Both the position numbers and the translations under genes were made by a program. A stretch of 64,000 nt of DNA, taken from positions 896,001 through 960,000 of the forward strand of contig CAXXKM010000001.1 in NCBI GenBank assembly GCA_963664435.2, in the 5' to 3' direction. Shown here one piece after another: positions 8,410 to 22,676 of the stretch; the first letter of the stretch is position 1; every line of letters begins with the position of its first letter. The notes under the pieces are model-generated. The model saw nothing but the letters and a program-made list of their open reading frames with translations, was not told where the DNA came from and made no database searches. Source of the DNA: Longimicrobiales bacterium. Lineage in GTDB: Bacteria > Gemmatimonadota > Gemmatimonadetes > Longimicrobiales > Gaopeijiaceae.

Positions 8410-11400
8410 CTACCGCAACTTGATTCTTCCGCGGACGCGCACCGAATGTTGCGCCCCACTGAGCCCGCTCTCGCGCCGCGTGCCCTCGAGGCGCAGTCCG
8501 ACGCCCGAGCCCAGATCGTAGCGCACGCCGCTCGAGAAGGCGCGCACGCCGCTCTGGCCGAGGTGGAAGCCGCTGTAGGGCGTCCCCTTCAGGCCGACGA
8601 TGCCGTAGGCCACCTCGCCGTCCACGTTGGGACCCATGCCCGGGCCATGGCCGCCCATCGCGTCGGACACCCCGCGCTCCCACAGCTGGTTCACCCCGCT
8701 CATGTGGTCGCCGTACGAAGGCGCCACCCGGATCGAGAGTCCCTGGTCCCGAGCCGCCGGATCGAACATCAGCGTGCCGCCCAGGCCCCATTCCTCGTAG
8801 CCGTCGTGCCCCGAGATGACGAACCGTCCGCGGCCCTCCGCGGTCAGCCCCAGACTGGAGTTCGTGTAGCGGAGCCCACCGCCGACTTCCGCGCTCGCGC
8901 CGTTCACACCGTCGCCGTTGTCGTAGCGCATCCCGCCTTCGAGCAGGAACGCCATCTCGTGCCCGGTGTCGGAGCGGAAGCCCTGTGCCAACTCGAGAGC
9001 CAGCTTGCCGCGCTGCATATCGAGCGTCACCGCCTCGATCCGCTCGGAGCCGTCGACCTTGACTCGGCCGTACCAGCCCTCGGCCTTGACGCGGATGCCG
9101 CTCAGGCCGCTCGAGAACAACTGGTAGCCGGCACCCCCCGCTCCCGTCAGCATGCTGGCGGGGCTGGTGCGGAGCCCTTCCCGTACGTCGTCCACTTCGA
9201 TGTCGCCCCGGCCGAGCCCGGCCGAACCCCAAACCGAGGTGCCGCGCGCGCCGGAGAACCAGGCCAGGTAGGGATGCAGGCTGGTCATGGTGGCGCCGTA
9301 CGTGCCCTTCACCGCGCTGGCGCCGGTCCTGTCGGTGAAGTCGAAGCTGCCTGAGGAGTACGAGCCCGCGACGCCCGCCAGAATGTCCGGCCCCACGCGC
9401 ACGTCCACGCCGACGTGGCCGCTCACCATGTTGCCCTTCCAGTCGACGCCGCTCGCGCCGGGTTCGCCGAGGTGGTGGTACTCGCCCGCGCCCCAGCTCG
9501 CCAACCGGGTGCCCGTGGCGGACTGCTGCGGCGCATCCGTGGCGCCGAAGGGCATCGTAAAGGAGGTGCCGCCGAAGAGCGCGGCCAGACCGGCCTGGTC
9601 GCGCTGGCCGAGGCCGAGTCCGCCCGCGCCCGGCGCGGACAGGCTCGCGGCCATCGACGAGAGCCCGTGCGTCTCCACGCGCCGCTCCATGCCCATCCCG
9701 CTGGCCACAACGTCGACGCGGCTTGCGATCGCCGAAACCGTGCTCGACGTCATCGCTGCCGCCACGTGCGGCAGGACGCGGGTGTTCAGCCGTCCCGTGC
9801 GCTGCACGGGATCGTCGGTCGCGGCCGAAGCGCTCGCCGACGCCGCGCCGGTGCCGGCCCGGTTGATGGCCGACACCCGGTAGTGGCGCACGCTCCCCGG
9901 CAGCAGGCCGGTGTGCGAGAAAATGCTGCCCCTGGAATCGGTGTTGGTCACCAGATCCGTCCACGCGGCGGCGTTCTCCGAGACCTCGATGCGATAGCCC
10001 GTGATGGGGGCGCCGCCATTGTAGGCGGGCGCGACCCAGGCGAGGTCGATCTGCGTGGGCGTGACCGCGGTGGCGACCAGCCCCGTGGGCGCGTCGGGCA
10101 CGGTCGCGTCGGTGGTGGAGCCCGCAACCCGCGACGCATCGCCCGCGCCGATCCGGTTGATCGCCGAAACGCGGTAGTGGCGCGTCGAGGCCGGCGCGAG
10201 CCCGCTGTGCGTATGGACGGTGGCCGTGGTGCGCGTGTTGGCCACCAGATCCTCCCAACTCCTGCCCCCGTCTGCCGACACCTCGATGCGGTAGCCAGTG
10301 ATGCGCGCGCCCCCGTCGTCGGAGGGCGCCTGCCAGGAAAGGTTGATCTGGGAGGTCCCGGCCGCCTCGGCGCTGAGACGCCGCGGCACCCCCGGCAGGG
10401 TCGCGTCGGTGGTCGCACGCGCCGTATTCGAGTAAGGCCCCGGGCCCGCGAGGTTTCTCGCCGCGACCCGGTAGTGCCGCGTGGTCGCGGGCCGCAGGGT
10501 CACGTCGGAGAACGTCGTCGTCGTCGAGTTCGTGTTGCGGCGGATGATGTTCCAGGTCGCGCCCTCGTCGTCGGAAGCCTCGATACGGTAGCCGATGATC
10601 GAAACACCGCCCGTATAGCGGGGCGCGTTCCACGAGAGGTCGATGCGCGAGGTGCCCACCGCCCGCGCCGTCAGCCCGGTCGGGGCTCCGGCAGTATCGA
10701 CGTGCGTAACAGCCCACACCGGGGGCTCCGAGGTGCGCGGCGACCACTCTCCCTCGCCTTCGCGGTTGATGGCCCTGACCTGGTACTGGTACCGGGTCAC
10801 CGGCTGGAGTCCGGTGTGCCTGAACGTGGTCGTCGTCGTCCCGGTGTTTTGCTCGGCGATGGTCCAGTCGTCGTCGGGCGGCCCGAGCACCCGGATGCCG
10901 TAGCCGGTGATGCGCGCCCCTCCGTCGGCTTCCGGCGCATCCCAGGCGAGGAGGATGCCGCTCGGCCCGGTCGCGCGCGCACGCACGTTCTGCGGCCGCC
11001 CGGGAGGCGCTGCATCGGTGGTGCCTTCGGCCACGTTGGAGGGGGGTCCTGCCCTCGCCGGGCCGTTGATCGCGGACACGCGATAGAACCAGGTGGCGGC
11101 GGGACCAAGATTGCTGTCGGTGTGGATGGTGGCCGTGCTGCCGGTGCTGGCCACGTGGATAACCCAGCCGCCGACTCCGTTGGCGGACCTCTCGATGCGG
11201 TAGCCGGTAATCGGGCTGCCGCCGTCGTCTGCCGGGACCGACCAGGTAAGGAGAAGCTGGTCGGTTCTCGTCGCGCCCGGAACCACCCTGAGTCCTGTGG
11301 GCGCGCTCGGAGCGGAGGTTTCGGTGGTCTCCCGGGCGGTACTCGACCACGCGCCCAGGCCCGCCGCGCTCCTCGCCGCGACGCGGTAGTTGCGGGTGGT

Positions 11401-12717
11401 GTTGGGCCTGAGGCCACCGTGAAAGTAGGTCGTGGTCACGGCGTTGGTGTCGGCCAGGTGCCGCCAGTCGCCGGTTTCGGTGCGCGATTCGATGCGGTAG
11501 CCGGTGATCCGCCCCGAGCCGCTGGAGGAGGGGGCGCGCCAACTCAACCCGATGGCCGAGTCCCCGCGGGCCTGCGCCGTAAACGACCGGGGCGCGTCCG
11601 GCAGGACAGCCTCCGTGGTGGCGAAGGCGACGTTCGAGGGATCTCCCGTCCCGTTGAAATTGATCGCCGACACCCTGTAGTGGCGCGTGACGCCCCCGGT
11701 GAGGCGCGTGTGGCGGTAGACGGTGTCGGGATGCCGGCGCTCCAGAGGGTCCCAGGAATCACCGCCGTCCGCCGACACCTCGATCAGGTATCCGGTAATC
11801 TCGCGCCCGCGATTCGAACTCGGCTCATCCCACTCAAGCTCGATCGCGTCAGGGCCGTCGGCCACCGCAGCGAGGTTGCGCGGCTCTCCGGGAACGCCGG
11901 TGCGCGCCTCCCCGGTGACGTTTCTGACCTGCCTGTCGAAACCGAACGCGAGATTGCCGACCAGGTCCCGAAGCGCGTTGGTGCCGCGGTCGTCGTAGAA
12001 CACCCGAACCGCGTCGACCGTGTCGACGGGGCTGGCCAGAAGCAGGAACACATCGCGGGTGGCCACTTCAACCCCGGACACGGTCTTGACGTTGAACGCG
12101 TTGCCCCTGAGGAAGGATACCTGGAAGTCGCTGGCCGAGGGGACGAAACCTTCATCGAGGTCTTCGTCGAAGGCGATGACGACTTCGTCGCCGTTGACCT
12201 TCGCGTCGGAGACTTCGGGGCCCTTCGTGTCCACGGGAATGTCGAGGGAATTCGACGCAAGATTCCCATCCCCCGAGGCGCTGTCCTGCGCTACGTTCGC
12301 AGGGATGTGGACGAACACGCGACCACTATAGGCCTCCGGCATCCTCAGCGTGACGGAAAATCTTCTGCCGGAGTCGCTGCCCGGTGGAACGGCCTCCGCG
12401 CATCCCGTATTCGGATACGGGCAGGTGATGTTGAGGGCGTCGGCCGTGAAGCCTTTCACGGGCCGTGAGAAAAGGATGGTGATCTGCGCACTGTCCTGTC
12501 TGGGCGGGCTGATCCAGCTCCATGAAATCGAGGTCCTGGGGGGGACGGCCACGTCGCTCGCCGCCGCCGGCGGTTCCGCGGCCGATCGGACCACCTCGCG
12601 CGACCCGCCCGGCGTTGGCTCCTCAGCCCGCGCGCCCGCGGAAGGAAGCAGGAAGGCGCAGACCACTGCGGCGGCCCGGAGGGAACGGGCAGGAAGGCCA
12701 GGCTGGTTCGGAATCAT
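8410..12717 (-). CDS. Fibronectin type III repeat autotransporter/adhesin (Ig-like + SwmB-like repeat + 7 FN3 + barrel)
   Basis: Seven 'PxxPxxL...LxWxxP...GG.ITGYRIE...YRVSAIN..G' repeats and a C-terminal barrel 'GMRYDNGDG'. Start at ATG 12717 with a GGAG RBS and signal peptide. Confidence 0.88.
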   Translation of the reverse strand: MIPNQPGLPARSLRAAAVVCAFLLPSAGARAEEPTPGGSREVVRSAAEPPAAASDVAVPPRTSISWSWISPPRQDSAQITILFSRPVKGFTADALNITCPYPNTGCAEAVPPGSDSGRRFSVTLRMPEAYSGRVFVHIPANVAQDSASGDGNLASNSLDIPVDTKGPEVSDAKVNGDEVVIAFDEDLDEGFVPSASDFQVSFLRGNAFNVKTVSGVEVATRDVFLLLASPVDTVDAVRVFYDDRGTNALRDLVGNLAFGFDRQVRNVTGEARTGVPGEPRNLAAVADGPDAIELEWDEPSSNRGREITGYLIEVSADGGDSWDPLERRHPDTVYRHTRLTGGVTRHYRVSAINFNGTGDPSNVAFATTEAVLPDAPRSFTAQARGDSAIGLSWRAPSSSGSGRITGYRIESRTETGDWRHLADTNAVTTTYFHGGLRPNTTRNYRVAARSAAGLGAWSSTARETTETSAPSAPTGLRVVPGATRTDQLLLTWSVPADDGGSPITGYRIERSANGVGGWVIHVASTGSTATIHTDSNLGPAATWFYRVSAINGPARAGPPSNVAEGTTDAAPPGRPQNVRARATGPSGILLAWDAPEADGGARITGYGIRVLGPPDDDWTIAEQNTGTTTTTFRHTGLQPVTRYQYQVRAINREGEGEWSPRTSEPPVWAVTHVDTAGAPTGLTARAVGTSRIDLSWNAPRYTGGVSIIGYRIEASDDEGATWNIIRRNTNSTTTTFSDVTLRPATTRHYRVAARNLAGPGPYSNTARATTDATLPGVPRRLSAEAAGTSQINLSWQAPSDDGGARITGYRIEVSADGGRSWEDLVANTRTTATVHTHSGLAPASTRHYRVSAINRIGAGDASRVAGSTTDATVPDAPTGLVATAVTPTQIDLAWVAPAYNGGAPITGYRIEVSENAAAWTDLVTNTDSRGSIFSHTGLLPGSVRHYRVSAINRAGTGAASASASAATDDPVQRTGRLNTRVLPHVAAAMTSSTVSAIASRVDVVASGMGMERRVETHGLSSMAASLSAPGAGGLGLGQRDQAGLAALFGGTSFTMPFGATDAPQQSATGTRLASWGAGEYHHLGEPGASGVDWKGNMVSGHVGVDVRVGPDILAGVAGSYSSGSFDFTDRTGASAVKGTYGATMTSLHPYLAWFSGARGTSVWGSAGLGRGDIEVDDVREGLRTSPASMLTGAGGAGYQLFSSGLSGIRVKAEGWYGRVKVDGSERIEAVTLDMQRGKLALELAQGFRSDTGHEMAFLLEGGMRYDNGDGVNGASAEVGGGLRYTNSSLGLTAEGRGRFVISGHDGYEEWGLGGTLMFDPAARDQGLSIRVAPSYGDHMSGVNQLWERGVSDAMGGHGPGMGPNVDGEVAYGIVGLKGTPYSGFHLGQSGVRAFSSGVRYDLGSGVGLRLEGTRRESGLSGAQHSVRVRGRIKLR

Positions 12718-12746
12718 CGTGTCGTCTCCGCGTTGGTAAACGAGCG

Positions 12747-12780
12747 TCACCCCCCGCCCGGAATCCCGAACGGGGGGTGA
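12747..12780 (-). terminator. GC-rich hairpin with a 10-bp stem (terminator or mRNA-stabilising element)
   Basis: TCACCCCCCG (12747-12756) pairs with CGGGGGGTGA (12771-12780). There is no strong U-tract. Confidence 0.5.
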
Positions 12781-12791
12781 GCCGTCCTGCG

Positions 12792-12832
12792 ACCATCGGC
12801 CTGGCTGGTGGCGAGTCAGCCAGGCCGATGGT
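12792..12832 (-). terminator. Perfect 16-bp hairpin just downstream of the large lipoprotein gene
   Basis: ACCATCGGCCTGGCTG (12792-12807) pairs with CAGCCAGGCCGATGGT (12817-12832), 9-nt loop. Confidence 0.6.
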
Positions 12833-12844
12833 GTTGAAGGGTTG

Positions 12845-15800
12845 TTAGCTCGATGGCTTGGCATCGACGGATACCACGGTACCCTGGCGCTCCTCGGTCC
12901 AGGTGTCGGTGCTGCCGTCCTCGCCCTCGTCAACACCCTCCTGCCGCGCGTCGACGCGTACCTTGATGGCCTTGTTGAGGTCGGCTTCAGTGATCGGAAC
13001 CGGTACCCCACCGAGCGTGCTCCAGGTTGCGGTGAAGCCGTCAGCGACCGGGAGGGTCCACGCCCTGGTTTCGCTGCCGAGAGTGGCAGGTGTTCCACCA
13101 GCGGCGACGAGCCATAAGGTGTTGCCTGCGGACGCGGCGTCGACCTCTACCAGAATCCGGAACTGCGAGTTGCCATTCGTCACAGCGTTCCAGCTGACCT
13201 CGATGTCGTCGTCGTCCCGTACGGCGGCCACACCGCTGGCCGACGGATCGATTTCGTCAACCGTGACCGCAGCCGAGGTGTCGGCGTACGGGACAGCCGG
13301 GGTCGAAGGCGTGATCTCTTCAGCGTTGGCAATGACCCGAACCATGAACTCGCCATCGCTCGGATTCGGGATCGTGAAGCTGCCCGGCACGTCCTCGAGT
13401 GGAGTACCAGCCTGCACCTGGGTTGGCGAGGTGACATCCGTCCAGGTATCACCATCATCCACGGAGGTCTGGATCGTGTACGTGGCGTCGTTATACCCAT
13501 CGGGCGTGTGCTCGGCGTTGGCCGTGTACATGACCGAGATGGTGGTAGCCCAGGCCCTCGTGGACTCATCGACATCGTCGGTGGCGTCGTCGTCGTCAAC
13601 GCGCATCCGCGCCGCTCTGACGTTCCGGGCGCCAGCAGTCATCGCCCTGATCGTACCGAAGTCATAAGCCTGACCCGGAGCGACGCTCACCCTCTGGTTG
13701 TCGTTCGGGTAGCCGAAGACGTGGTTCGCCGCCGACGCTTCGATGTCATAGGTGCCGAACGGTACGCTGAGCACGAAGGTGCCTCTGGCAGTGCTGGTGC
13801 TGGAGACATCGTCCCCGGCTGCGCCCGGAACCACGTTCGTGGCCGTGACCGTAACGCCACCCATTGCGGTGTTGTCCGGACCGCGCACCCTGCCCGAAAT
13901 CGTCGCGTGCAGGAAGCCGGTGAAGTTGATACCCGAGACCGCCGATCCGGCGTGGGCCGGCACGGACAGCTCCGCAGGCGCGAAGCTCATGCCGTCCTTC
14001 GACACGGTCACCGCAGCACTCTCGCCCAGGTCTTTGGCGGTGATGGTCGCGGTGTAGGTGCCGTCGGCGCCCGTCACGAGCTTGCCTGCGTTCGCACCGG
14101 TCGTGGCTGCGTTGGTCGGGGCCGCGCCGTCCACCATGATCTCGGCACCGGCGATCGGCGCGCCGCTGCCGGATGCGGTGACCGTACCGCTGATCGAGGC
14201 GGTCGCGCCTACGCCCGAAAGATCGACGTCTGCGTTGATACGGTCGTTCGCAGCGAATGGCACGATCTCCCGCGTCTTCCCGCTTCCTTCATGGGCGGTC
14301 TCAACGAAGACGCTGTTCGTGTGCGTCACGTTGCCAATCTTGCGGCTCGCCACGTTGGGCACGTACTCCGCGATGTAGCGGCCGTGCGCGTCGGTCATCG
14401 CCTCAACCCCGTTCACGTTCACGGTCACGTCGGGAACGGGGAATTCCTCCGCGTCCCTCACGTAGCCGTAGACGGTGGTCGTCGCCGGCGTGATGTCGAG
14501 TTCAACATCCCCTGCGAGCGGGCTGAAGGCGCTGCCGACCATGGCGGTGGCGCCCTTCGGACCCATCCTCGCCCGCCAGCCGTCCGTCACGCTGGCTTCG
14601 TAGACGCCGGCAGCGATGTTGTTGAAGGCGAACTGGTGGGTCTCGTCGAGCACTTCATTGCCCTTGGAGGTCTCACCCGGCCCCCGGACCGGCTTCTCCG
14701 TGGTGGTGGCGGACTCCTCGTCACCCGCGAGATTCTTGCCCTCGACGGGGCTCAGGCTGACCGAAATGCCGGGTACGAACGTGGGTCCACCATCATCCTC
14801 CGGACCCATCTTGAAGCCGTCATCGTTGGCGCTCTCGCTGCTCCTGAGGACCTGGTTCTTCCAGATCAGGCCCGTCACCGAGTGCGTGCTCACGTAGGCG
14901 AACGACGAGCAATCGCCGTGGTCCTGCGGCTTGGTGGCCTGTAGCGGGCATAGCGAAACCGTGTGGCTGTAGCCGCCCTGCGCTCCGAAGTGGCCGCCAG
15001 TGATTCCGTTGGTTTCCGTGCCGGCGTAGGCGGCCAGCTCATCGGCATGCCCGCCCTCATCGAGGAGCATGATGCTCTGGTCGCTGTTGTCGGCCTTCGA
15101 CGCCTGGGCAATCACGTTCATGTCGGCCGGCACGTTGTTGAAGACCCATGCACCGCCGTCACCATTGTTGCGCGGCTCGCTGATGCTGTCCGCAGCCGTG
15201 AACGGGCGCGAGCGCCCGCTGTCGTCGATATAGCGGACCTCGACGTCGACCTTGCGATCGGCACCCTTTCCGTCCATCTCGTCGCCGCCGATGATGTTTC
15301 CGGTGTAGCCTTCGACCTGGTCGAGCTCGTGGTGGACGTAGACCTTGAGCGTCTGGGTCGTGAACGCCGCCTCGAGCATGCCGGCGTCCTGCGTGCCGGC
15401 CAGCATGAGGCCGGTGTGCGTGTACTCGACCGGCTGAGCCGAGTAGTTCTCGCCCCCGTCCAGCGCGTTGTCCTGGTCGTCGGCGAGCGCGACGGTGAAG
15501 GTCGCCGGCAGGTCGTCGGCTCCGACGGTAGTCATGAACGCCGCGTTGCCCATGTCGTCCAGCATCTCCGGCGCGCCGTCGACCGCTTCGTCGCCGGACA
15601 TGACGCTGATCGCCCAGCCGGCGAGCGCCTCGCCGCCACCGTACTCGGTGGTGACAGTGGCGCCGCTGACGGATGCGTCGACGTTCAGGTTGACGATGTC
15701 GTTGGAGTTTCCGGCCGCGGTCGCAAACATCTGCGGATCCCAGGACACTGCGGTCCTGGCGTCCTCACCGTAATCGTAGCCTTCGGCCGATACGCCCGCT

Positions 15801-17503
15801 GTCACCATGTTCCCGTCGGTGCGTGCGCGCGCGACCTTGATCGTGACGGAGCCGTCGTCGTCGGTGGTGCCGCTGCCGACCATGCCGTCGCCCGTCCCGT
15901 AGAGCGTGACTGTGGCGCCGGGAACCGCGTCGCCCATGTCGTCGCCGTTCCTCAGCGAGACCGTGAAGTTGACCGTTGTGTGCGTGATGTCGAACGGAAT
16001 GGCCTGCGAAGCCGGCTCGCCGACACCGAGGTCGACGGAGTAGCCTTCGCCCGGTCCGCCGTACGCGAGGTCGGCGGCCGCGAGCGCCGCGGCGACATCG
16101 GCGTTGATGAGCACGACCAGCTGGTAGGGGCCGGCGCGCAGACCCGTGAAGGAGAACGCACCGGTCTCGTCCGTGGCGCCAAGCCGCTGCTCGTTGACGC
16201 CCGGGCCCACCAGCGCCACCGGAATGCCGGCGTGCGCCACCGAATGCTCGCCCTCGTCGTACATGTCGTTCTTGGTCGCCTCGTCGATGAACACCATGCC
16301 CGAGACGCTCGCGGTGCGCGCGTGCGCGCCCTCGAAATTCACGATCGCCGACTCGTCGTCGCCCAGCGTCACGTCCGTGCTCATCGACTCGAACACGTAG
16401 GCGTCGCTCTCGACCGCGATCGAGACCGTGTAGTCGCCGGCCGCCAGGCCCGCGAAGGCGTACTGGCCGCCCGCGTCGGTCATCGTCGTGCGGCTCTCGT
16501 CGCCGCCCGCCAGCGTCACCGCGATGTCGCCGAGTCCCATGCCCTCGACGCTCACTCCGCCCGCGATGCCGGAGGTGCGGAGCAGGACGCCGGTGAACGA
16601 CACCGTGCCGGTCTCGTCGAGATCCACGCTCACGTCCTGCGACGTGGCCGCGAACTCGTAGTCGCGCGGGTCGAAGTCCGCGATCTCGACCCTGTAGTCG
16701 CCGGGGCGAAGTTCCTCGAACCGGAACATGCCATCGCCGTCGGTCATCATCGTGTAGCTCTCGTCGGCCGGACCGCCGCTCAGGGTGACCGTAATGCCGG
16801 CAAGCCCTTCGCCTTCGATGATCACCTGCCCCTCGACCGCGGAGGTGCGGATGAAGTGGCCCGTGAAGTCGGCCTGGCCGACATCGCCCACGTCGACCTG
16901 GATCTCGAGGCTCACCGTCTCGAAGGACACGTCCTCGGGGAAGTCGCTGATGGTGACCGTGTAGGTGCCCGCGCGGAGCCCGGTGAAGGCGAAGCCGCCG
17001 CTCATGTCGGTCTCCATGGTCTCGCCCATGGCGTGCTCGCCGCCGAGCGTGACCGTCACGCCAGCCAGCGTCTCGGGCTGGCCGTCGCCGCCGCTCATCA
17101 TGGCGTCGGCCGCAACCACGTTGCCGACCACCGCGGAGGAGCGGATGTACTCGCCGGCGAAGTTGAGTTGGACGTTCTGACCATCGGTCGCGATGGTCGC
17201 GGACTGCGTCACCTGGGCGAACGTCGCATCCTCGGGGAAGCCGCTGATGGTGACCGTGTAGGTCCCGGCTTCCACGCCCGAGAAGGCGAAGCTGCCACCC
17301 GACCCGGTCGTCGTGGTCGCACCCGACGACAGGGTGGCGGCGATGCCGCTGGCGGCCGTGCCTTCAATCGTCACCGTCCCGGAGATGGTTCCCACGGGAG
17401 TGGGCGGCGGGGGCGGCTCCACGGGCGGCGGAGTGCCCTCGTCGCAGGCGGTGAAGGTCAGGGCCATCAGCGTTGCTGCGGCGAAGAGTTTGAGTCGGTT
17501 CAT
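12845..17503 (-). CDS. Large acidic surface lipoprotein with carboxypeptidase-regulatory-like/Cna-B beta-sandwich repeats
   Basis: Lipobox 'LTFTAC' and Pro-rich linker. Multiple 'G.I.VTL.G....T.TD..G.F.F.GL.AG.Y.V' repeats. AGGAGG RBS; 1552 aa. Confidence 0.85.
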   Translation of the reverse strand: MNRLKLFAAATLMALTFTACDEGTPPPVEPPPPPTPVGTISGTVTIEGTAASGIAATLSSGATTTTGSGGSFAFSGVEAGTYTVTISGFPEDATFAQVTQSATIATDGQNVQLNFAGEYIRSSAVVGNVVAADAMMSGGDGQPETLAGVTVTLGGEHAMGETMETDMSGGFAFTGLRAGTYTVTISDFPEDVSFETVSLEIQVDVGDVGQADFTGHFIRTSAVEGQVIIEGEGLAGITVTLSGGPADESYTMMTDGDGMFRFEELRPGDYRVEIADFDPRDYEFAATSQDVSVDLDETGTVSFTGVLLRTSGIAGGVSVEGMGLGDIAVTLAGGDESRTTMTDAGGQYAFAGLAAGDYTVSIAVESDAYVFESMSTDVTLGDDESAIVNFEGAHARTASVSGMVFIDEATKNDMYDEGEHSVAHAGIPVALVGPGVNEQRLGATDETGAFSFTGLRAGPYQLVVLINADVAAALAAADLAYGGPGEGYSVDLGVGEPASQAIPFDITHTTVNFTVSLRNGDDMGDAVPGATVTLYGTGDGMVGSGTTDDDGSVTIKVARARTDGNMVTAGVSAEGYDYGEDARTAVSWDPQMFATAAGNSNDIVNLNVDASVSGATVTTEYGGGEALAGWAISVMSGDEAVDGAPEMLDDMGNAAFMTTVGADDLPATFTVALADDQDNALDGGENYSAQPVEYTHTGLMLAGTQDAGMLEAAFTTQTLKVYVHHELDQVEGYTGNIIGGDEMDGKGADRKVDVEVRYIDDSGRSRPFTAADSISEPRNNGDGGAWVFNNVPADMNVIAQASKADNSDQSIMLLDEGGHADELAAYAGTETNGITGGHFGAQGGYSHTVSLCPLQATKPQDHGDCSSFAYVSTHSVTGLIWKNQVLRSSESANDDGFKMGPEDDGGPTFVPGISVSLSPVEGKNLAGDEESATTTEKPVRGPGETSKGNEVLDETHQFAFNNIAAGVYEASVTDGWRARMGPKGATAMVGSAFSPLAGDVELDITPATTTVYGYVRDAEEFPVPDVTVNVNGVEAMTDAHGRYIAEYVPNVASRKIGNVTHTNSVFVETAHEGSGKTREIVPFAANDRINADVDLSGVGATASISGTVTASGSGAPIAGAEIMVDGAAPTNAATTGANAGKLVTGADGTYTATITAKDLGESAAVTVSKDGMSFAPAELSVPAHAGSAVSGINFTGFLHATISGRVRGPDNTAMGGVTVTATNVVPGAAGDDVSSTSTARGTFVLSVPFGTYDIEASAANHVFGYPNDNQRVSVAPGQAYDFGTIRAMTAGARNVRAARMRVDDDDATDDVDESTRAWATTISVMYTANAEHTPDGYNDATYTIQTSVDDGDTWTDVTSPTQVQAGTPLEDVPGSFTIPNPSDGEFMVRVIANAEEITPSTPAVPYADTSAAVTVDEIDPSASGVAAVRDDDDIEVSWNAVTNGNSQFRILVEVDAASAGNTLWLVAAGGTPATLGSETRAWTLPVADGFTATWSTLGGVPVPITEADLNKAIKVRVDARQEGVDEGEDGSTDTWTEERQGTVVSVDAKPSS

Positions 17504-17589: not shown

Positions 17590-17852
17590 TTTCAGAACCT
17601 TCATAATTGGCAACCGGTTACGCACTATCGCCCCGCTCTGTGGCATCCGGCGGACCCCACGGATTCTCGGATTATCGGCGACGGCCACTGTTTTCTGAAT
17701 GCGACTAAAACGATAAGATTGTTGGCGATATCGCCCGTTTATCAGAAATGTGTCTCAAATATCACTCCGATCGCCCCTGTCTCGTCGTATACGACGTTAT
17801 CGATATCCGCAATGCCAGAAGCGACTGTAGGACGATCCGTCACGGCCCTAAA

Positions 17853-17879: not shown

Positions 17880-17962
17880 GGTATATACGAAGACTCACCA
17901 TGGGGGCAAAGGAATGGGGCGCCACGGTTGGCAGCGCGCCTCTTCACGGCGGGATCGCAGGG

Positions 17963-18826
17963 ATGGAGTCGAAACAACTGGTCTGCATGCTGTATTGCAG
18001 CGACGGCGAACTGAGGGACCGACTGGAGCGCGTGCTCGCCGGCGTCGCAGTTCAGCGAGTGCGTTCGAGAGAGGCACTCCTGGCGCCGCCCGCGATCGTT
18101 TGCGCGACGGTATACGGAACCACCACCTGCTCCGATGACGAAGTCGAGTGGTTGCGGTCGGCCTTCAGGCCTCTGAGCCCGCCATGCGTCGTGGTGGCTG
18201 ACCTCTCCGTAGACTGCCTGCGACGACTGGACCCACTCCGCTCCTGCAGGCTGAAGGTCGTGTGGACCGCCGAGGCCGAGGACCGCCTCGGTGAAGTCCT
18301 CGGGGAGTTCGGCAGGGTGAGTTGGGGTCCGATGTGGCGTCTCGGCCTGGGGCTGGTGTCGGAGCCTTCCCTGAAGCCTTTCGTAAAGGAGACGATCCGC
18401 CGGGCGTGCGGCCTGCGCAACGATCCCGCCGGCACTCCGTTCGTCCCCGAGAAGTCCGTCGGAAAGCTGGCGCGCGAGGTCGGCGTCGCCACGTCGACGC
18501 TTCGGCTTTGCTGGAGGGAGGAAGTTCCGCTCCGGTGCAGCCTCAAGGAATTCCTGAGCTGGGCGGTCACCCTCTGGGGCACGCGCGCGCGTGCACTTGA
18601 GGAATGGACTCCCCTCGCCAAACGGCTGGGACTCCAGCGCCGCTCGCTCGAGAGAAACTTCCTTCGGACGGCCGGATGTACCCTCGCCGAGGCGGCCGAG
18701 GACTCGGAGCGGGTGGTCGGGCGATTCAATGAGTGGGTCGATTCCGTGTGGGAGCCCCACTCCGGCGACGGGTCCGGGGCGTATGATCGGGTTCCGACGC
18801 AGGCGCCCCGCGAGGAGATGCCTTGA
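17963..18826 (+). CDS. Divergent AraC-like double-HTH regulator with a degenerate receiver-like N-terminus
   Basis: HTH1 'SVGKLAREVGVATSTLRLCW' and HTH2 'WTPLAKRLGLQRRSLERNFLRTAGCT' with an AraC-like F-x-R-x-x-G-x-T ending. Start 17963 or 17900. Confidence 0.65.
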   Translation: MESKQLVCMLYCSDGELRDRLERVLAGVAVQRVRSREALLAPPAIVCATVYGTTTCSDDEVEWLRSAFRPLSPPCVVVADLSVDCLRRLDPLRSCRLKVVWTAEAEDRLGEVLGEFGRVSWGPMWRLGLGLVSEPSLKPFVKETIRRACGLRNDPAGTPFVPEKSVGKLAREVGVATSTLRLCWREEVPLRCSLKEFLSWAVTLWGTRARALEEWTPLAKRLGLQRRSLERNFLRTAGCTLAEAAEDSERVVGRFNEWVDSVWEPHSGDGSGAYDRVPTQAPREEMP

Positions 18827-19869
18827 CGGTGGCCGGATCGACCGCCCGGCGTTACGTCGGGTGGCGGTGCAGGCTCTACCCGAGCCCCGCGCAGGATGAA
18901 GCGCTGCTCCGGTGCAGGAACGGCCTGCGCGAACTCGCCAACGCCCTGCTCGCCACCTCCCAGCTCAGGTACGGGGAGACCGGACGGCGCCTGTCCCTGA
19001 TCGAGATGCGCGCCTTCGCGCGGGACTGGAAGCGGCAGCCGAAGCACCGGGAATTCCCCGCCAGCGCCAGCTACCGCGTCGCCGCCGATCTCGACCGGAC
19101 CTTCCGCACCTGGTTCAGCAGGCCGGGAAAACGCGGGCGCAGAGGATTTCCCCGGATCAAGAGCATCGGACGGGAGCCCGGCATCTACTTCAGCAACCAG
19201 GGGATCCGCTTCGACGGCAGCCGGGTGTGGCTGCCCAGGTTCGGGTCCGTGCGCTGGAAGGGCGGAAAGCTGCCCTCGGGGAGGCTGCCGGGTCCGTCCG
19301 GACGCAAGACCCTCGGTCTGCTCTCGGGGCGGGCCTGGCTCGATGCGGGAAACCGGTGGATGCTGTCGTGCCTGTTCGAGTGCGCGCCGCTCACCCCCGT
19401 CGAACCGAGAACGGAGAAGGCGGCAGTCCGTCAGAACGGCCGCGAAATCAGTGTGTCGGTGGACGGGGAGGCCCTCCACGTGATCCGCGAGAGCAGGACG
19501 CTCAGGAACGCGAGGCGCCGCCTGGCAAGGCTCGAGCGGCGGCTGGAGCGATGCGAATTCGGGTCAGAAGGCCGAAAGCGCACCCTTGCCCTCATGCGCA
19601 ACCAGGCACGCAGGGTTCGGAACCACCAGGCGGATCTGCAGCACAAGGCCACGACCGGCGTCGTGCATGAGGCCCGCGAGATCGAAGTGGAAGGCGCGAG
19701 CAGCGAACTGCTGCGTCAGCTCGAATACAAGGCGGAGTGGCACCGCCGCCGACTGAAGGTACGGCGAGGCCCGCCGGAACCGGGGACTGGCAAGCCCCGA
19801 CGCGCGCGGAGACCGGGGAGCCGGTCGCAGAAACGCGAATCGCGGACGCGAAGGCCGAAAGCTCTGTAG
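18823..19869 (+). CDS. tnpB: Nuclease-dead, C-terminally truncated TnpB (IS200/IS605 OrfB) derivative, TldR-like
   Basis: TnpB hallmarks: 'RLYPSPAQ', 'GFPRIKS', 'VWLPRFGSVRW', 'RWMLS', 'RLARLERRL', 'DLQHKATT' and 'LLRQLEYKAEW'. RuvC-I 'GIDLG' is replaced by 'AVRQNG'; no CxxC Zn finger or 'DRDxNAA'. TTG start with GAGGAG RBS overlaps the upstream TGA. Confidence 0.85.
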   Translation: MTVAGSTARRYVGWRCRLYPSPAQDEALLRCRNGLRELANALLATSQLRYGETGRRLSLIEMRAFARDWKRQPKHREFPASASYRVAADLDRTFRTWFSRPGKRGRRGFPRIKSIGREPGIYFSNQGIRFDGSRVWLPRFGSVRWKGGKLPSGRLPGPSGRKTLGLLSGRAWLDAGNRWMLSCLFECAPLTPVEPRTEKAAVRQNGREISVSVDGEALHVIRESRTLRNARRRLARLERRLERCEFGSEGRKRTLALMRNQARRVRNHQADLQHKATTGVVHEAREIEVEGASSELLRQLEYKAEWHRRRLKVRRGPPEPGTGKPRRARRPGSRSQKRESRTRRPKAL

Positions 19870-19890
19870 CCGTCTGCGAAGGCCGGAACG
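19760..19890 (+). ncRNA. Putative TnpB omega-RNA (reRNA) scaffold overlapping the 3' end of the dTnpB ORF; guide expected just downstream
   Basis: Paired elements: CGGCG/CGCCG (19762-76), CGGGG/CCCCG (19781-99), ACG-CGCG-C-GGAGA...GAAA-CGCG-AA (19800-39) enclosing GACCGG/CCGGTC, and terminal stem TCGCGGACG/CGTCTGCGA (19840-79). The layout matches IS605-type omega-RNAs as I recall them. Boundaries are approximate. Confidence 0.65.
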
Positions 19891-20312
19891 AATCAGGGAG
19901 CAGGACCTCGCCAGGTACGGGACAGCAGGTGATATCTGATCCGTGAGCGATAATATCGGCAACTATGATGATATCATGGAGACAGAGAGAGTCGAGGCAA
20001 CACCGGCCCCCACGCAAGAGGTAGCCGATTGCACTGCGATCTATCAGTTATATTTCAAGGTAGTATGCTGATATTGGGATGATAACGCGGATGCATGCAC
20101 CCTGAAGCTCCATCCGCAGTCCCCAGGCCGCTTTGTACGCTCAATCCACACTTCCACCGCGAACCCTGCCGAGACTAGGGGAGGTGCCCTTGAATCCCGG
20201 TCGACAATTTATGACGTTTGGATGATAGTTCGGGTGCATTTGCGATGTTTTGGCGATCACTGGTTGTGCCCGAGGACGCGACGCCGGGCGAGGATCCGGG
20301 GAGGACGGGCCG

Positions 20313-22676
20313 GTGACTAAGCACCCGGACGCGTTGAGAATAGAGGCGCTGCAGGAGCGCGTCTCGAGGCTGTGCGGCGCAATCCTGCGCATCAACGCGA
20401 GCCTGGATCTTGAGACGGTCCTGCAGGAAGTCGTAGACAGCGCCCGGGCCCTGACCGGCGCCCGCTATGGCCTGATTGCGACCGTCGACGACGCGGGCGA
20501 ACCCGGGCCGTACCTCGTCTCCGGCCTGACGCCGGAGCAGCTGCGGCAGCTTCAGGAGTGGGAGGACGGGCTCCGGGTCTTCGAGCACTTCCGGGACCTT
20601 CCGGGTGCGGTGCGGATCGGAGACCTGTCGACCTGGCTCCGTTCGCTCGGTTTCTCGCCGGTCGCGCTTCCATCGAAGACGCTGCAGGGCACGCCGATCC
20701 GTCATCGGGGCATCTACGCCGGAAGTTTCTTTATCGGCGGAAAGGACGGGGAAGGCGAGTTCACCCGCGAGGACGAAGAGGTTCTCGTCCTGCTGGCGTC
20801 GCAGGCAGCGACGGCGATCGCCAATGCCCGCAACTTCCGGGACGAACAGCGGGCGCGGGCGAAGGTGGAGACCCTCGTCGACACGTCGCCGGTCGGCGTG
20901 GTGGTCCTGGACGCCAGAACCGGAAGTCTGGTGTCGATCAACCGGGAGGCGAAGCGGATCGTCCGAGGCCTGCGGATGCCGGACGGGTCAACGATGGAGC
21001 TTCTGGAATTGGTTACGTGCCGGCGCGGCGACGGGCGCGAGTTCGCCTTGAAGGAATACCCGCTGGCGCGCGAGCTGAGCAGCGCCGAGACGCTGCGTGC
21101 CGAGGAGATCGAACTTTCGGTCCCCGATGGACGCAGCGTTAAGACGCTGATAAACGTGACGCCGATCCATGAGCCCGACGGTCGCGTCGAGTCCGTTGTG
21201 GTCACCATGCAGGATATGGCGCCGTTTGAGGAGCTCGAGCGAATGCGGACCGAGTTCCTCGGGATCGTGAGTCACGAGTTGCGCGCGCCGCTTGCCGCCA
21301 TCAAGGGCTCGGCGGCCACAGTGCTCGCCGGCTCCGGGCGCGTCGCTCGTGCCGAGATGCTGCAGTTCTTCCGCATCATCGACGAGCACGCCGACAACAT
21401 GAGCGTTTTGATGGGCGACCTGCTCGATGCGGGACGCATCGCGACGGGCACATTGTCCATCTCGCCCGAGCCCTCGGATGTCGGGGCGCTGATCGACCAG
21501 GCGCGGACCACCTTCCTGAACGCCGGCGGCCGACACAGCGTGCGGGTCGACCTGCCTCCGGACCTGCCGAAGGTGATGGTCGACCGGCAGCGCATCGTAC
21601 AGGTCCTCAACAACCTCCTCTCCAACGCGGCGAGATACTCCCGGACGTCGTCGCCCATAGAGGTCAACGCGCGGCTCGATGGCGTCCATGTCTCGATCAC
21701 GGTATCCGACCATGGCAGAGGCATCGCGCCCGAGCGGCTGGCGCACTTGTTCGCCAAGCGGGCCGGCGCGGGCGAGGGCACGCGCGGTCTGGCGACGGGC
21801 CTGGGCCTCGCCATCTGCAAGGGACTGGTAGAGGCGCACGGGGGCCGCATCCGGGCTCGGAGCGAAGGAGAGGGTCGAGGGGCGCGATTCACGTTCACCG
21901 TCCCTACCGCCGAAGAGGTCGGCGGCGACATCGCGGCTTCGGATTCCTCCTCGCAGGAACGCTCCCGTCCAGGTCCGGACGCGACGCGCATCCTGGTGGT
22001 GGACGACGACCCGCGGACGCTGCTCTACATCCGCGATACGCTCACCACGGCGGGGTATACCGTACTCGAGACGGGCGAGCCTCCGGAACTGGCGCGGGTC
22101 ATTCGCGCGGAGAAGCCCCACCTGGTCCTGCTCGACCTGATGTTGCCCGGGACCGACGGCATCAAGCTGATGCAACAGGTTCCCGACCTGGCCGACATGC
22201 CGGTCATCTTCATCTCCGCCTACGGGCGGGACGAGACGATCGCAAAGGCCCTCGACGCCGGGGCCGCCGATTACATCGTCAAGCCGTTTTCGGCGACGGA
22301 GTTGACGGCGAGGATCCGGGCGGCGCTGCGCAGGCACGCCGAGCCCGCATCCTTCATGCTGAGTGGGCTGGCCATCGACTACGATCGCCGCCAGGTGACG
22401 CTCGGCGGCCAGCCGCTGGAGCTCACCGCCACCGAATACGAGCTGCTGCGGGTGCTCTCGGCCAACGCCGGGCGCGTGCTGACGTACCGCGCGCTGCTGC
22501 GCAAGGCCTGGGACACCCGCTACCGGAGCTCCGTCGACCCGAAGCTGGTGCATGCCGTTGTGAGGAGGCTCCGCCACAAACTGGGCGAGGACGGCGCTCG
22601 GCCGACCTACATTCTCAACGAGCGAAGGGTAGGCTACCGGATGCCCGCGCCGGACGACCGCGCGAGCGAGCCGTGA
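20313..22676 (+). CDS. Soluble hybrid sensor kinase/response regulator (GAF-PAS-HisKA-HATPase-REC-OmpR winged helix)
   Basis: H-box 'SHELRAPL', N-box 'NNLLSNAARYS', G2 'GLGLAICK', REC 'VVDDD...LLDLMLPG...KPF' and wHTH 'LTATEYELL...RVGY'. GTG start with a GGAGG RBS. Confidence 0.9.
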   Translation: MTKHPDALRIEALQERVSRLCGAILRINASLDLETVLQEVVDSARALTGARYGLIATVDDAGEPGPYLVSGLTPEQLRQLQEWEDGLRVFEHFRDLPGAVRIGDLSTWLRSLGFSPVALPSKTLQGTPIRHRGIYAGSFFIGGKDGEGEFTREDEEVLVLLASQAATAIANARNFRDEQRARAKVETLVDTSPVGVVVLDARTGSLVSINREAKRIVRGLRMPDGSTMELLELVTCRRGDGREFALKEYPLARELSSAETLRAEEIELSVPDGRSVKTLINVTPIHEPDGRVESVVVTMQDMAPFEELERMRTEFLGIVSHELRAPLAAIKGSAATVLAGSGRVARAEMLQFFRIIDEHADNMSVLMGDLLDAGRIATGTLSISPEPSDVGALIDQARTTFLNAGGRHSVRVDLPPDLPKVMVDRQRIVQVLNNLLSNAARYSRTSSPIEVNARLDGVHVSITVSDHGRGIAPERLAHLFAKRAGAGEGTRGLATGLGLAICKGLVEAHGGRIRARSEGEGRGARFTFTVPTAEEVGGDIAASDSSSQERSRPGPDATRILVVDDDPRTLLYIRDTLTTAGYTVLETGEPPELARVIRAEKPHLVLLDLMLPGTDGIKLMQQVPDLADMPVIFISAYGRDETIAKALDAGAADYIVKPFSATELTARIRAALRRHAEPASFMLSGLAIDYDRRQVTLGGQPLELTATEYELLRVLSANAGRVLTYRALLRKAWDTRYRSSVDPKLVHAVVRRLRHKLGEDGARPTYILNERRVGYRMPAPDDRASEP

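Follow-up and report, generated by a model that had tools for sequence, protein, structure and literature searches.

The two-gene unit described here appears, as judged from its sequence and that of its relatives, to belong to a real, selected and previously unreported lineage of TldR type, in which nuclease-dead TnpB proteins are directed at a new target family and are accompanied by cross-targeting relatives. It is probably part of an accessory cassette whose effect is to exchange one surface lipoprotein variant of the cell for another, through silencing of the resident copy of the lipoprotein gene (S) by a TnpB–RNA complex. Within the window, by which we mean the whole 64,000-nucleotide stretch of DNA that was analysed, the cassette and its surroundings are laid out as follows.

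8410..13098, minus strand: gene for an FN3 protein downstream of S, with fn3 repeats (Pfam fn3, E 1e-81); the coordinates are those of the open reading frame from its first GTG, and the real start is probably more internal.
12845..17503, minus strand: S gene, encoding a surface lipoprotein of 1552 aa whose Ig repeats are of CarboxypepD_reg/SdrD type, with a lipobox read off the sequence; the cassette's own variant.
17490..17500, minus strand: codons 2-5 of S, predicted target of a clade 2 (sister) dead TnpB encoded on contig C3.
17574..17589, minus strand: sigma-54 promoter (-24/-12) of S, a consensus match.
17607..17698, minus strand: conserved elements upstream of S, putatively an IHF-like site and a probable activator site, kept among cassettes.
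17963..18826, plus strand: gene A, 287 aa (alternative longer start at 17900), with a pseudo-receiver (residues 4-120) and a seven-helix double-HTH (166-262).
18812..18826, plus strand: ribosome-binding site GAGGAG (18812-17) and stop/start overlap TTGA (18823-26).
18823..19869, plus strand: gene B, 348 aa, nuclease-dead TnpB of clade 1.
19758..19886, plus strand: guide-RNA scaffold overlapping the 3′ end of B, its 5′ boundary approximate; inner parts are the 5′ stem (19762-19776), the pseudoknot (19768-19771 with 19881-19884) and two terminal bases (19885-19886).
19887..19898, plus strand: predicted guide AACGAATCAGGG, its first 10 nt invariant.
20250..22676, plus strand: hybrid GAF-PAS-histidine kinase-receiver-OmpR HTH gene, a common island neighbour that is not in every cassette.

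In the window the neighbours of the cassette are S, the FN3 gene, the hybrid kinase, a TonB receptor and a binding protein, and the open reading frame lists of other loci hold similar kinds of genes. The FN3 protein probably ends in a C-terminal outer-membrane barrel, and an FN3-type gene comes after S paralogs at other places in the genome too. The sigma-54 -24/-12 and IHF-like motifs upstream of S, and the GAFTGA motif of activators, were assigned by their consensus forms; the promoter was seen in 18 of 22 cassettes, and five GAFTGA-type activators are encoded in the genome. Hybrid GAF-PAS-kinase-receiver-HTH genes are multi-copy and lie beside surface-protein genes and A paralogs (20250-22676, C1:886125-888488, L011, L329, L330). 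Between S and A, no repeat was common to the four regions compared. The overlap of the A stop with the TTG start of B behind a ribosome-binding site, described in the initial annotation of this DNA, is reproduced at the same coordinates. A adjoins B, stop to start, at 22 of 22 loci examined (one locus per place, drawn from a longer list of B homologs), so that the synteny with the HTH gene is indeed conserved; the choice of start codon for B differs between loci.

First, gene B is a TnpB that seems to have lost its catalytic centre. It is recognized as a TnpB homolog by profile (NF040570, E 6e-21), and its best fold match is ISDra2 TnpB (8h1j, E 1.6e-19), the dCas12f fold matching more weakly (1.1e-12). 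The RuvC-I aspartate position (B residue 203) holds Asp in none of the 46 family rows, and the lid, the zinc finger and RuvC-III have all been deleted, which agrees with the earlier call of a catalytically dead enzyme; the RuvC-II glutamate is retained in 42 of the 46 rows, and the TAM-region residues are conserved. In the accessible text of Wiegand et al. (bioRxiv 10.1101/2023.11.30.569447), TldRs are defined by the loss of at least two RuvC DED residues. The absence of a transposase, likewise part of the initial annotation, extends to the genus: a search for the Y1 transposase TnpA (PF01797) found it in 0 of 19 genus genomes, with positive results in 6 of 14 control rings. The viral contigs searched for B homologs contained none that was close (best 26%). 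B thus shares with ISDra2 TnpB the REC/WED/bridge-helix fold, an omega-RNA lying over the gene end and a terminal pseudoknot, whereas in the present lineage catalysis is lost, the guide is fixed, TnpA is missing and CCGG stands instead of TCAA/TCAC/TCAG.

Second, the dead enzyme appears to be maintained by selection. Close B homologs occur in 16 of the 19 genomes of the window's genus; the other genera of the 61-genome sample yielded no close homolog, only ordinary TnpB at 27-29%, and a 251-genome sample added three further genomes, from a second genus. Named records that carry the A–B pair are labelled as Longimicrobiales, Gemmatimonadetes or Gammaproteobacteria MAGs. Over the 22 loci, pairwise dN/dS has a median of 0.28 in B and of 0.39 in residues 106-262 of A, values that speak for the purifying selection which the initial annotation had named as a check. 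Broken copies occur, with fragments mainly in one genome (G005) and a frameshifted A at L081. The window's genome also has a second A–B cassette, two stand-alone scaffolds and a clade 2 TnpB (53%, sister) in two identical copies within a duplicated segment. In a quick midpoint-rooted tree, built from the sequences of this analysis, dead clades 1-3 cluster together (SH-aLRT 100), separate from 22 further TnpBs. Clade 3 proteins are full-length and keep the zinc finger intact, but both catalytic Asp residues are replaced by Ala (L179:5947-7242; L333); they likely represent an earlier stage of the same domestication. A divergent, dead-looking TnpB (L183:2022-3338; 33%) with an internal Cys/His insertion also groups with the family in the tree, and no scaffold was found behind it.

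Public sequencing runs and the assemblies themselves add some context. The contigs of RNA run X1, which is labelled as a sponge metagenome (share 0.06), include cassette-like pieces that are about 90% alike and hence come from relatives, being no record of expression, of RNA ends or of this strain's habitat; in DNA runs X2, X4 and X6, near-identical pieces cover the cassette, and the sample behind the assembly is perhaps among these runs. Large near-identical inverted duplications surround S loci (G000:C2:1-14255 with 53717-67971; C3:1129957-1145985 with 1778193-1794204), one of them where a contig begins and the other where a contig ends, and may be either real rearrangements or assembly overlaps.

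Third, a guide RNA seems to have been retained at the end of B. The structured omega-RNA-like scaffold noticed earlier is real, the evidence for it being comparative: the fold of a single sequence does not rise above shuffles (z 0.40) and an Rfam search of the window returned 0 matches, whereas across 21 aligned scaffolds 96% of cells are paired under a six-helix model, compared with 28-45% in slid controls. Its pseudoknot joins the loop of the 5′ stem to a 4-nt strand near the scaffold 3′ end, and the two strands co-vary through compensatory and wobble variants (loop/3′ strand GGCC/GGCC, GGCC/GGTC, GGCA/TGCC, GGCG/TGCC); in one degraded scaffold it is disrupted. Where does the guide begin? 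In active IS605 relatives at different insertion sites, identity stops 2 nt past the equivalent pseudoknot strand, and the ISDra2 pseudoknot occupies positions -5 to -3 (accessible text of PMC10097598); this geometry sets the guide start at 19887. From there, the first 10 nt are identical in 32 of 32 guide rows, and the next positions fall to 0.81, 0.91, 0.81, 0.66 and 0.53. The rows were chosen by their first four letters, yet every scaffold behind a 74-88% B copy reads identically, and ten invariant bases followed by decay remain a sign of selection on the guide. The initial annotation closed the feature at 19890; the omega-RNA is indeed there, but that end is spanned by the guide (19887-19898) and does not lead into variable flank.

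A competing reading places an IS605 right end at TCAG (19893-96) and takes the tail for that of a cargo-bearing or decaying non-autonomous element whose flank serves as guide. It draws on the drop in conservation just past TCAG, on flanks that differ at almost all loci, on the status of TCAG and TCAA as ordinary right ends in active relatives, where the scaffold described here terminates in the tetranucleotide CCGG, and on the existence of broken copies. However, the pseudoknot geometry sets the end 10 nt earlier, flank-derived guides have no common target, none of the 19 genomes has TnpA, the dead enzyme is under purifying selection, guide and target co-vary at base 2 in G195 (below), and an empty-site search revealed no sharp or clean junction at the guide. 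This reading is largely refuted, and we give it scarcely any chance. The features of active IS200/IS605 elements, namely an intact RuvC, TnpA or its supply in trans, a TCAN right end after the pseudoknot and a variable guide, were not found. Two other guide starts were considered: one after TCAG was ruled out for want of a common or S-linked target, and one after CCGGAA, with a shared TGAA TAM, was dropped on the ends of active relatives, the G195 co-variation and the ISDra2 pseudoknot.

Fourth, the guide so placed matches the leader of a resident S paralog. The S family comprises several paralogs per genome, with a conserved N terminus and a variable remainder; the first 300 aa of the cassette S are 87-97% identical to four paralogs, and after residue 750 identity is mostly 13-47% to three of those. 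The 12-mer TGAACGAATCAG, in which two bases of flank are joined to ten of the guide, occurs at 15 sites in 14 of 19 genomes, and all 15 lie in the leader of one type of S paralog, antisense and behind GGTTG (14 of 14 leaders), at about +53 to +64 and 24-35 bp before the ATG; in G000 the predicted targets are C2:12969-12980 and C2:54992-55003. The site is invariant over 16 nt, with varying sequence on either side, and in G010 the 12th base is A in one guide and likewise in the leader. It is present in 14 of 16 genomes with a cassette and 0 of 3 without, genomes that are kin and therefore not independent; the two exceptions, G017 and G018, are fragmented assemblies in which the site was not found, and two of the three cassette-free genomes are single-contig with many S paralogs. 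Of the cassettes' own divergent S leaders, 0 of the 16 seen (16 of 22 loci show the divergent S start) have the site. Match, specificity and escape of the own copy can all be read at the level of sequence. The initial annotation had suggested surface-protein loci such as the divergent sigma-54 operon as targets; the protein family was right, and the predicted target is a resident paralog elsewhere rather than that operon. Two genomes, G006 and G008, each a single contig and rich in S paralogs (in G006 about 20 were listed), yielded no dead TnpB, A or leader site, and perhaps have another route to varying the same surface protein.

The naive chance of the guide–target match is 0.003, a figure that overstates its significance because the leader site repeats the S start, imperfectly and in inverted orientation, and is predicted to pair with the ribosome-binding site and AUG in 12 of the 14 leaders that were folded. 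The site may be conserved for its own sake, via this hairpin, and owing to the same repeat a start-codon guide could drift onto it by few changes. The orientation also matters: the TAM-proximal end of the clade 1 site faces the ATG, away from the promoter, and the accessible text of Wiegand et al. (bioRxiv 10.1101/2023.11.30.569447) has TldRs repressing efficiently from the 5′ UTR only in the opposite orientation. An orientation unfavourable for a DNA roadblock leaves room for action at the RNA level, in which the guide would pair with the host mRNA leader, open the RBS/AUG hairpin and alter translation or stability, possibly upward; the guide–leader duplex reaches -18.8 kcal/mol, and the mean pairing probability between the target and the RBS/start is 0.67-0.81 in 12 of 14 leaders. 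The sister guides, however, are sense to the mRNA and so can act only on DNA, the TAM-like flank is invariant, the TAM-region residues of the protein are conserved, and the leader hairpin shows no compensatory changes. We know of no TnpB that acts on RNA in such a way, and consider this quite unlikely. Alternatively, binding to DNA could, instead of stalling polymerase, keep a sigma-54 activator or some other factor from a site of its own downstream of the transcription start. A site at that distance, invariant amid varying flanks, would suit such a factor, orientation would be irrelevant, and sigma-54 flagellar promoters can have downstream activator sites; still, no candidate factor was found and the hairpin accounts for the conservation equally well, and we deem this very unlikely.

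Fifth, related guides point to the same gene family from a different position. Clade 2 guides match the bases right after the ATG of S genes at 37 sites in 15 of 19 genomes (three codon-3 variants pooled), all 37 being S starts and the window's S gene among them, and the S genes within clade-2/3 loci have recoded starts. In G195, the clade 2 guide AGCAGACTCAAA, with G at base 2, corresponds to the S start ATG-AGCAGACTCAAA of the same genome over 12 matching bases, a co-variation that provides an independent check on the guide start; in G009, guide AACAGACT fits the AGA-codon S start of that genome. The G198 guide has a mismatch to its S starts at base 3, and G306 yielded no S start. Unlike the clade 1 sites, those of clade 2 lie in the efficient-repression orientation, and the TAMs required would differ as well, GGTTG for clade 1 and CATG for clade 2. 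A TGA stop occupies codon 3 in 8 of the 37 S starts, in host-type and cassette-type copies alike and with a long open frame behind it (G000:C2:13002, C2:54970; G002:C34, G003:C374, G004:C2, G007:C29, G010:C1, G011:C25); the change sits in the clade 2 seed, and escape, a reversible switch and recurrent deamination are all possible explanations.

Stand-alone and tandem scaffolds with distinct guides occur upstream of clade-2/3 S genes (L009:18922 and 18707, which are G000:C3:1146921 and 1146706; L073, L061, L078, L179). Among the stand-alone guides of G000, one has no target that we could find, and for another the match, 13 bases long, is to the beginning of a TonB-receptor-like gene (C1:893432). 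At L336 (G195:C22), L337 (G306:C160) and L182, the terminal 9-12 nt of the scaffold recur in tandem just after it, each copy being followed by a different 12-nt guide variant, which amounts to a two-unit repeat-spacer array from a TnpB RNA end. A more elaborate scheme would make of all this an RNA-programmed, multi-tier surface-antigen switch, derived from a single domesticated TnpB lineage, with mutual silencing, escape by recoding, guides that track their targets and form minimal arrays, and a clade 1 that, on moving to a site poorly suited to a roadblock, gained a signal-dependent pseudo-receiver/HTH co-effector; taken whole, it strikes us as rather improbable.

Sixth comes gene A. In its predicted model (pLDDT 84), receiver folds match the N-terminal half (Z 11-12.5), which lacks the phospho-acceptor Asp: Gly52-Thr/Ile/Leu/Val53 and Trp101 stand where a phosphorylatable receiver has Asp (end of beta-3) and Lys (after beta-5), as placed from the model. 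The C-terminal half has seven helices at 166-262, and AraC double-HTH domains have seven as well. The HTH_18 profile matches A at E 0.06, short of the cut-off; with E values as high as 0.1 allowed, it is found in 19 of 59 family members, 0.0012 being the lowest value, and 22% and 92% of Atlas neighbours carry it. A comparison with PDB sequences gave nothing useful, Foldseek no match with E below 0.001, and no sigma-family profile matched. For the AraC-like double-HTH originally proposed, the sequence match is weak, the model shows a seven-helix half, and the N-terminal half is receiver-like. Residues 12 and 56 (17996-17998, 18128-18130) are cysteines conserved in 57 and 58 of 59 rows; they lie with Asp14 at the receiver active-site place, and a metal or redox sensor is possible.

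Does A work with the TnpB complex or beside it? In the initial annotation, the TnpB–RNA complex marks a site on which A docks as a co-repressor or activator. Docking would explain why clade 1 alone took a partner on moving to the weak-roadblock orientation, and it accords with the constant adjacency of A and B, with retention of the HTH half at the 5 of 22 loci that have lost the receiver domain, with a Mantel p of 0.009, and with the failure to find A in G006 or G008, both without a cassette. Nevertheless, sigma-54 promoters require an AAA+ activator, and A is none. An intact cassette (L176/L177) has no A within 6 kb, no adjacent A was found in sister clades 2 and 3, and A paralogs without TnpB, from a family of 486 representatives, have hybrid-kinase genes and further Ig-type lipoprotein genes nearby. 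Moreover, the identities of A and B barely correlate (R2 0.08; 0.01 without near-identical pairs), nearer to the 0.19 of the dispensable operonic HTH protein of dCas12f loci, which binds upstream of its own gene, than to the 0.78 of sigmaE (accessible text of PMC13472631). Together with the receiver truncations, these data do not support a TnpB complex that recruits or requires the HTH protein, and we think docking unlikely. Weak co-divergence, receiver deletions, the A-less cassette, the TnpB-free paralogs and the dCas12f precedent instead favour a local-regulator role.

In the cassette model that we prefer, a variant S under its sigma-54 promoter would travel with the divergent A, the dead TnpB and the guide RNA. 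This RNA, once produced, would lead TnpB to DNA beside GGTTG in the 5′ leader of the resident S and lower its expression, and the cassette's S, without the leader site, would escape repression. Clades 2 and 3 and the stand-alone guides would target the first codons of S, their own S being recoded, which would establish a mutual-exclusion hierarchy among cassettes. Gene A most likely acts as a local regulator, co-transcribed and timing cassette activity, rather than as a subunit.

Four features of TldRs that can be judged from sequence appear in the B lineage: DED loss, a switch of neighbours, a scaffold with a conserved guide, and a TAM-flanked site in a host gene. The neighbour switch takes the form of a lost transposase link, with A adjacent at every one of the 22 loci and a divergent S start visible at 16. 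Linkage to fliC, oppF or csrA, which define the named TldR clades, was not found. Flagellin TldRs, including cross-targeting loci, are described in the accessible text of Walker et al. (PMC13418256), and the fliC_P-associated kind is similar in that an accessory locus carries a surface-protein variant with a conserved base and a variable exposed part, and in that the guide of the dead TnpB fits the paralog resident in the host but not the copy carried by the locus itself. There, however, a flagellin under sigma-28 is controlled from a promoter site; here it is a 1,500-1,800-aa Ig-repeat lipoprotein under sigma-54, with a leader site, a coupled HTH gene and no close viral homolog. The csrA-associated TldRs in the same text also have several chromosomal loci per genome that cross-target paralogs, intra-ORF sites, a second regulator beside the TldR and guides possibly acting in trans, whereas the present partner is a pseudo-receiver/HTH protein rather than CsrA, three protein clades address at least two target positions, and clade 2 has tandem guide mini-arrays. 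The oppF-associated TldR, with a 9-bp duplex in the accessible part of Xiao et al. (bioRxiv 10.64898/2026.09.22.753285), is alike in its short 9-12 nt pairing, a target downstream of the start site, a dispensable lid and paralog tuning; it represses a gene in its own operon with TAM TTTAA, and in our lineage the lid and C-terminal domain are deleted outright. The dCas12f-sigmaE systems (Hoffmann et al., accessible text of PMC13472631) likewise join a dead effector to an HTH gene in an operon and have tandem guide copies, but here there is no operonic ECF sigma factor and the fold is nearer TnpB. In the supplementary files of Wiegand et al., as far as they were searchable, no match was found for the phylum, the order, three accessions of the B family or AraC, and the open literature searched contained no report of this dead-TnpB clade.

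Finally, these loci would take the remodelling of cell surfaces by RNA guides beyond flagella, to a family of large non-flagellar lipoproteins that depend on sigma-54 and belong to an uncultured phylum, with guide, TAM and target predicted to the base level. The folded core of B, about 315 residues, together with a 130-nt scaffold would make a very small programmable DNA binder. Steps of domestication appear to be preserved side by side in the genomes, from a full-length double mutant through truncated forms, guide retargeting and stand-alone guides to two-unit arrays, and they bear on the origin of CRISPR-like arrays from transposon ends. For the organisms themselves, switching of the surface lipoprotein could matter for the recognition of hosts or for escape from phages.
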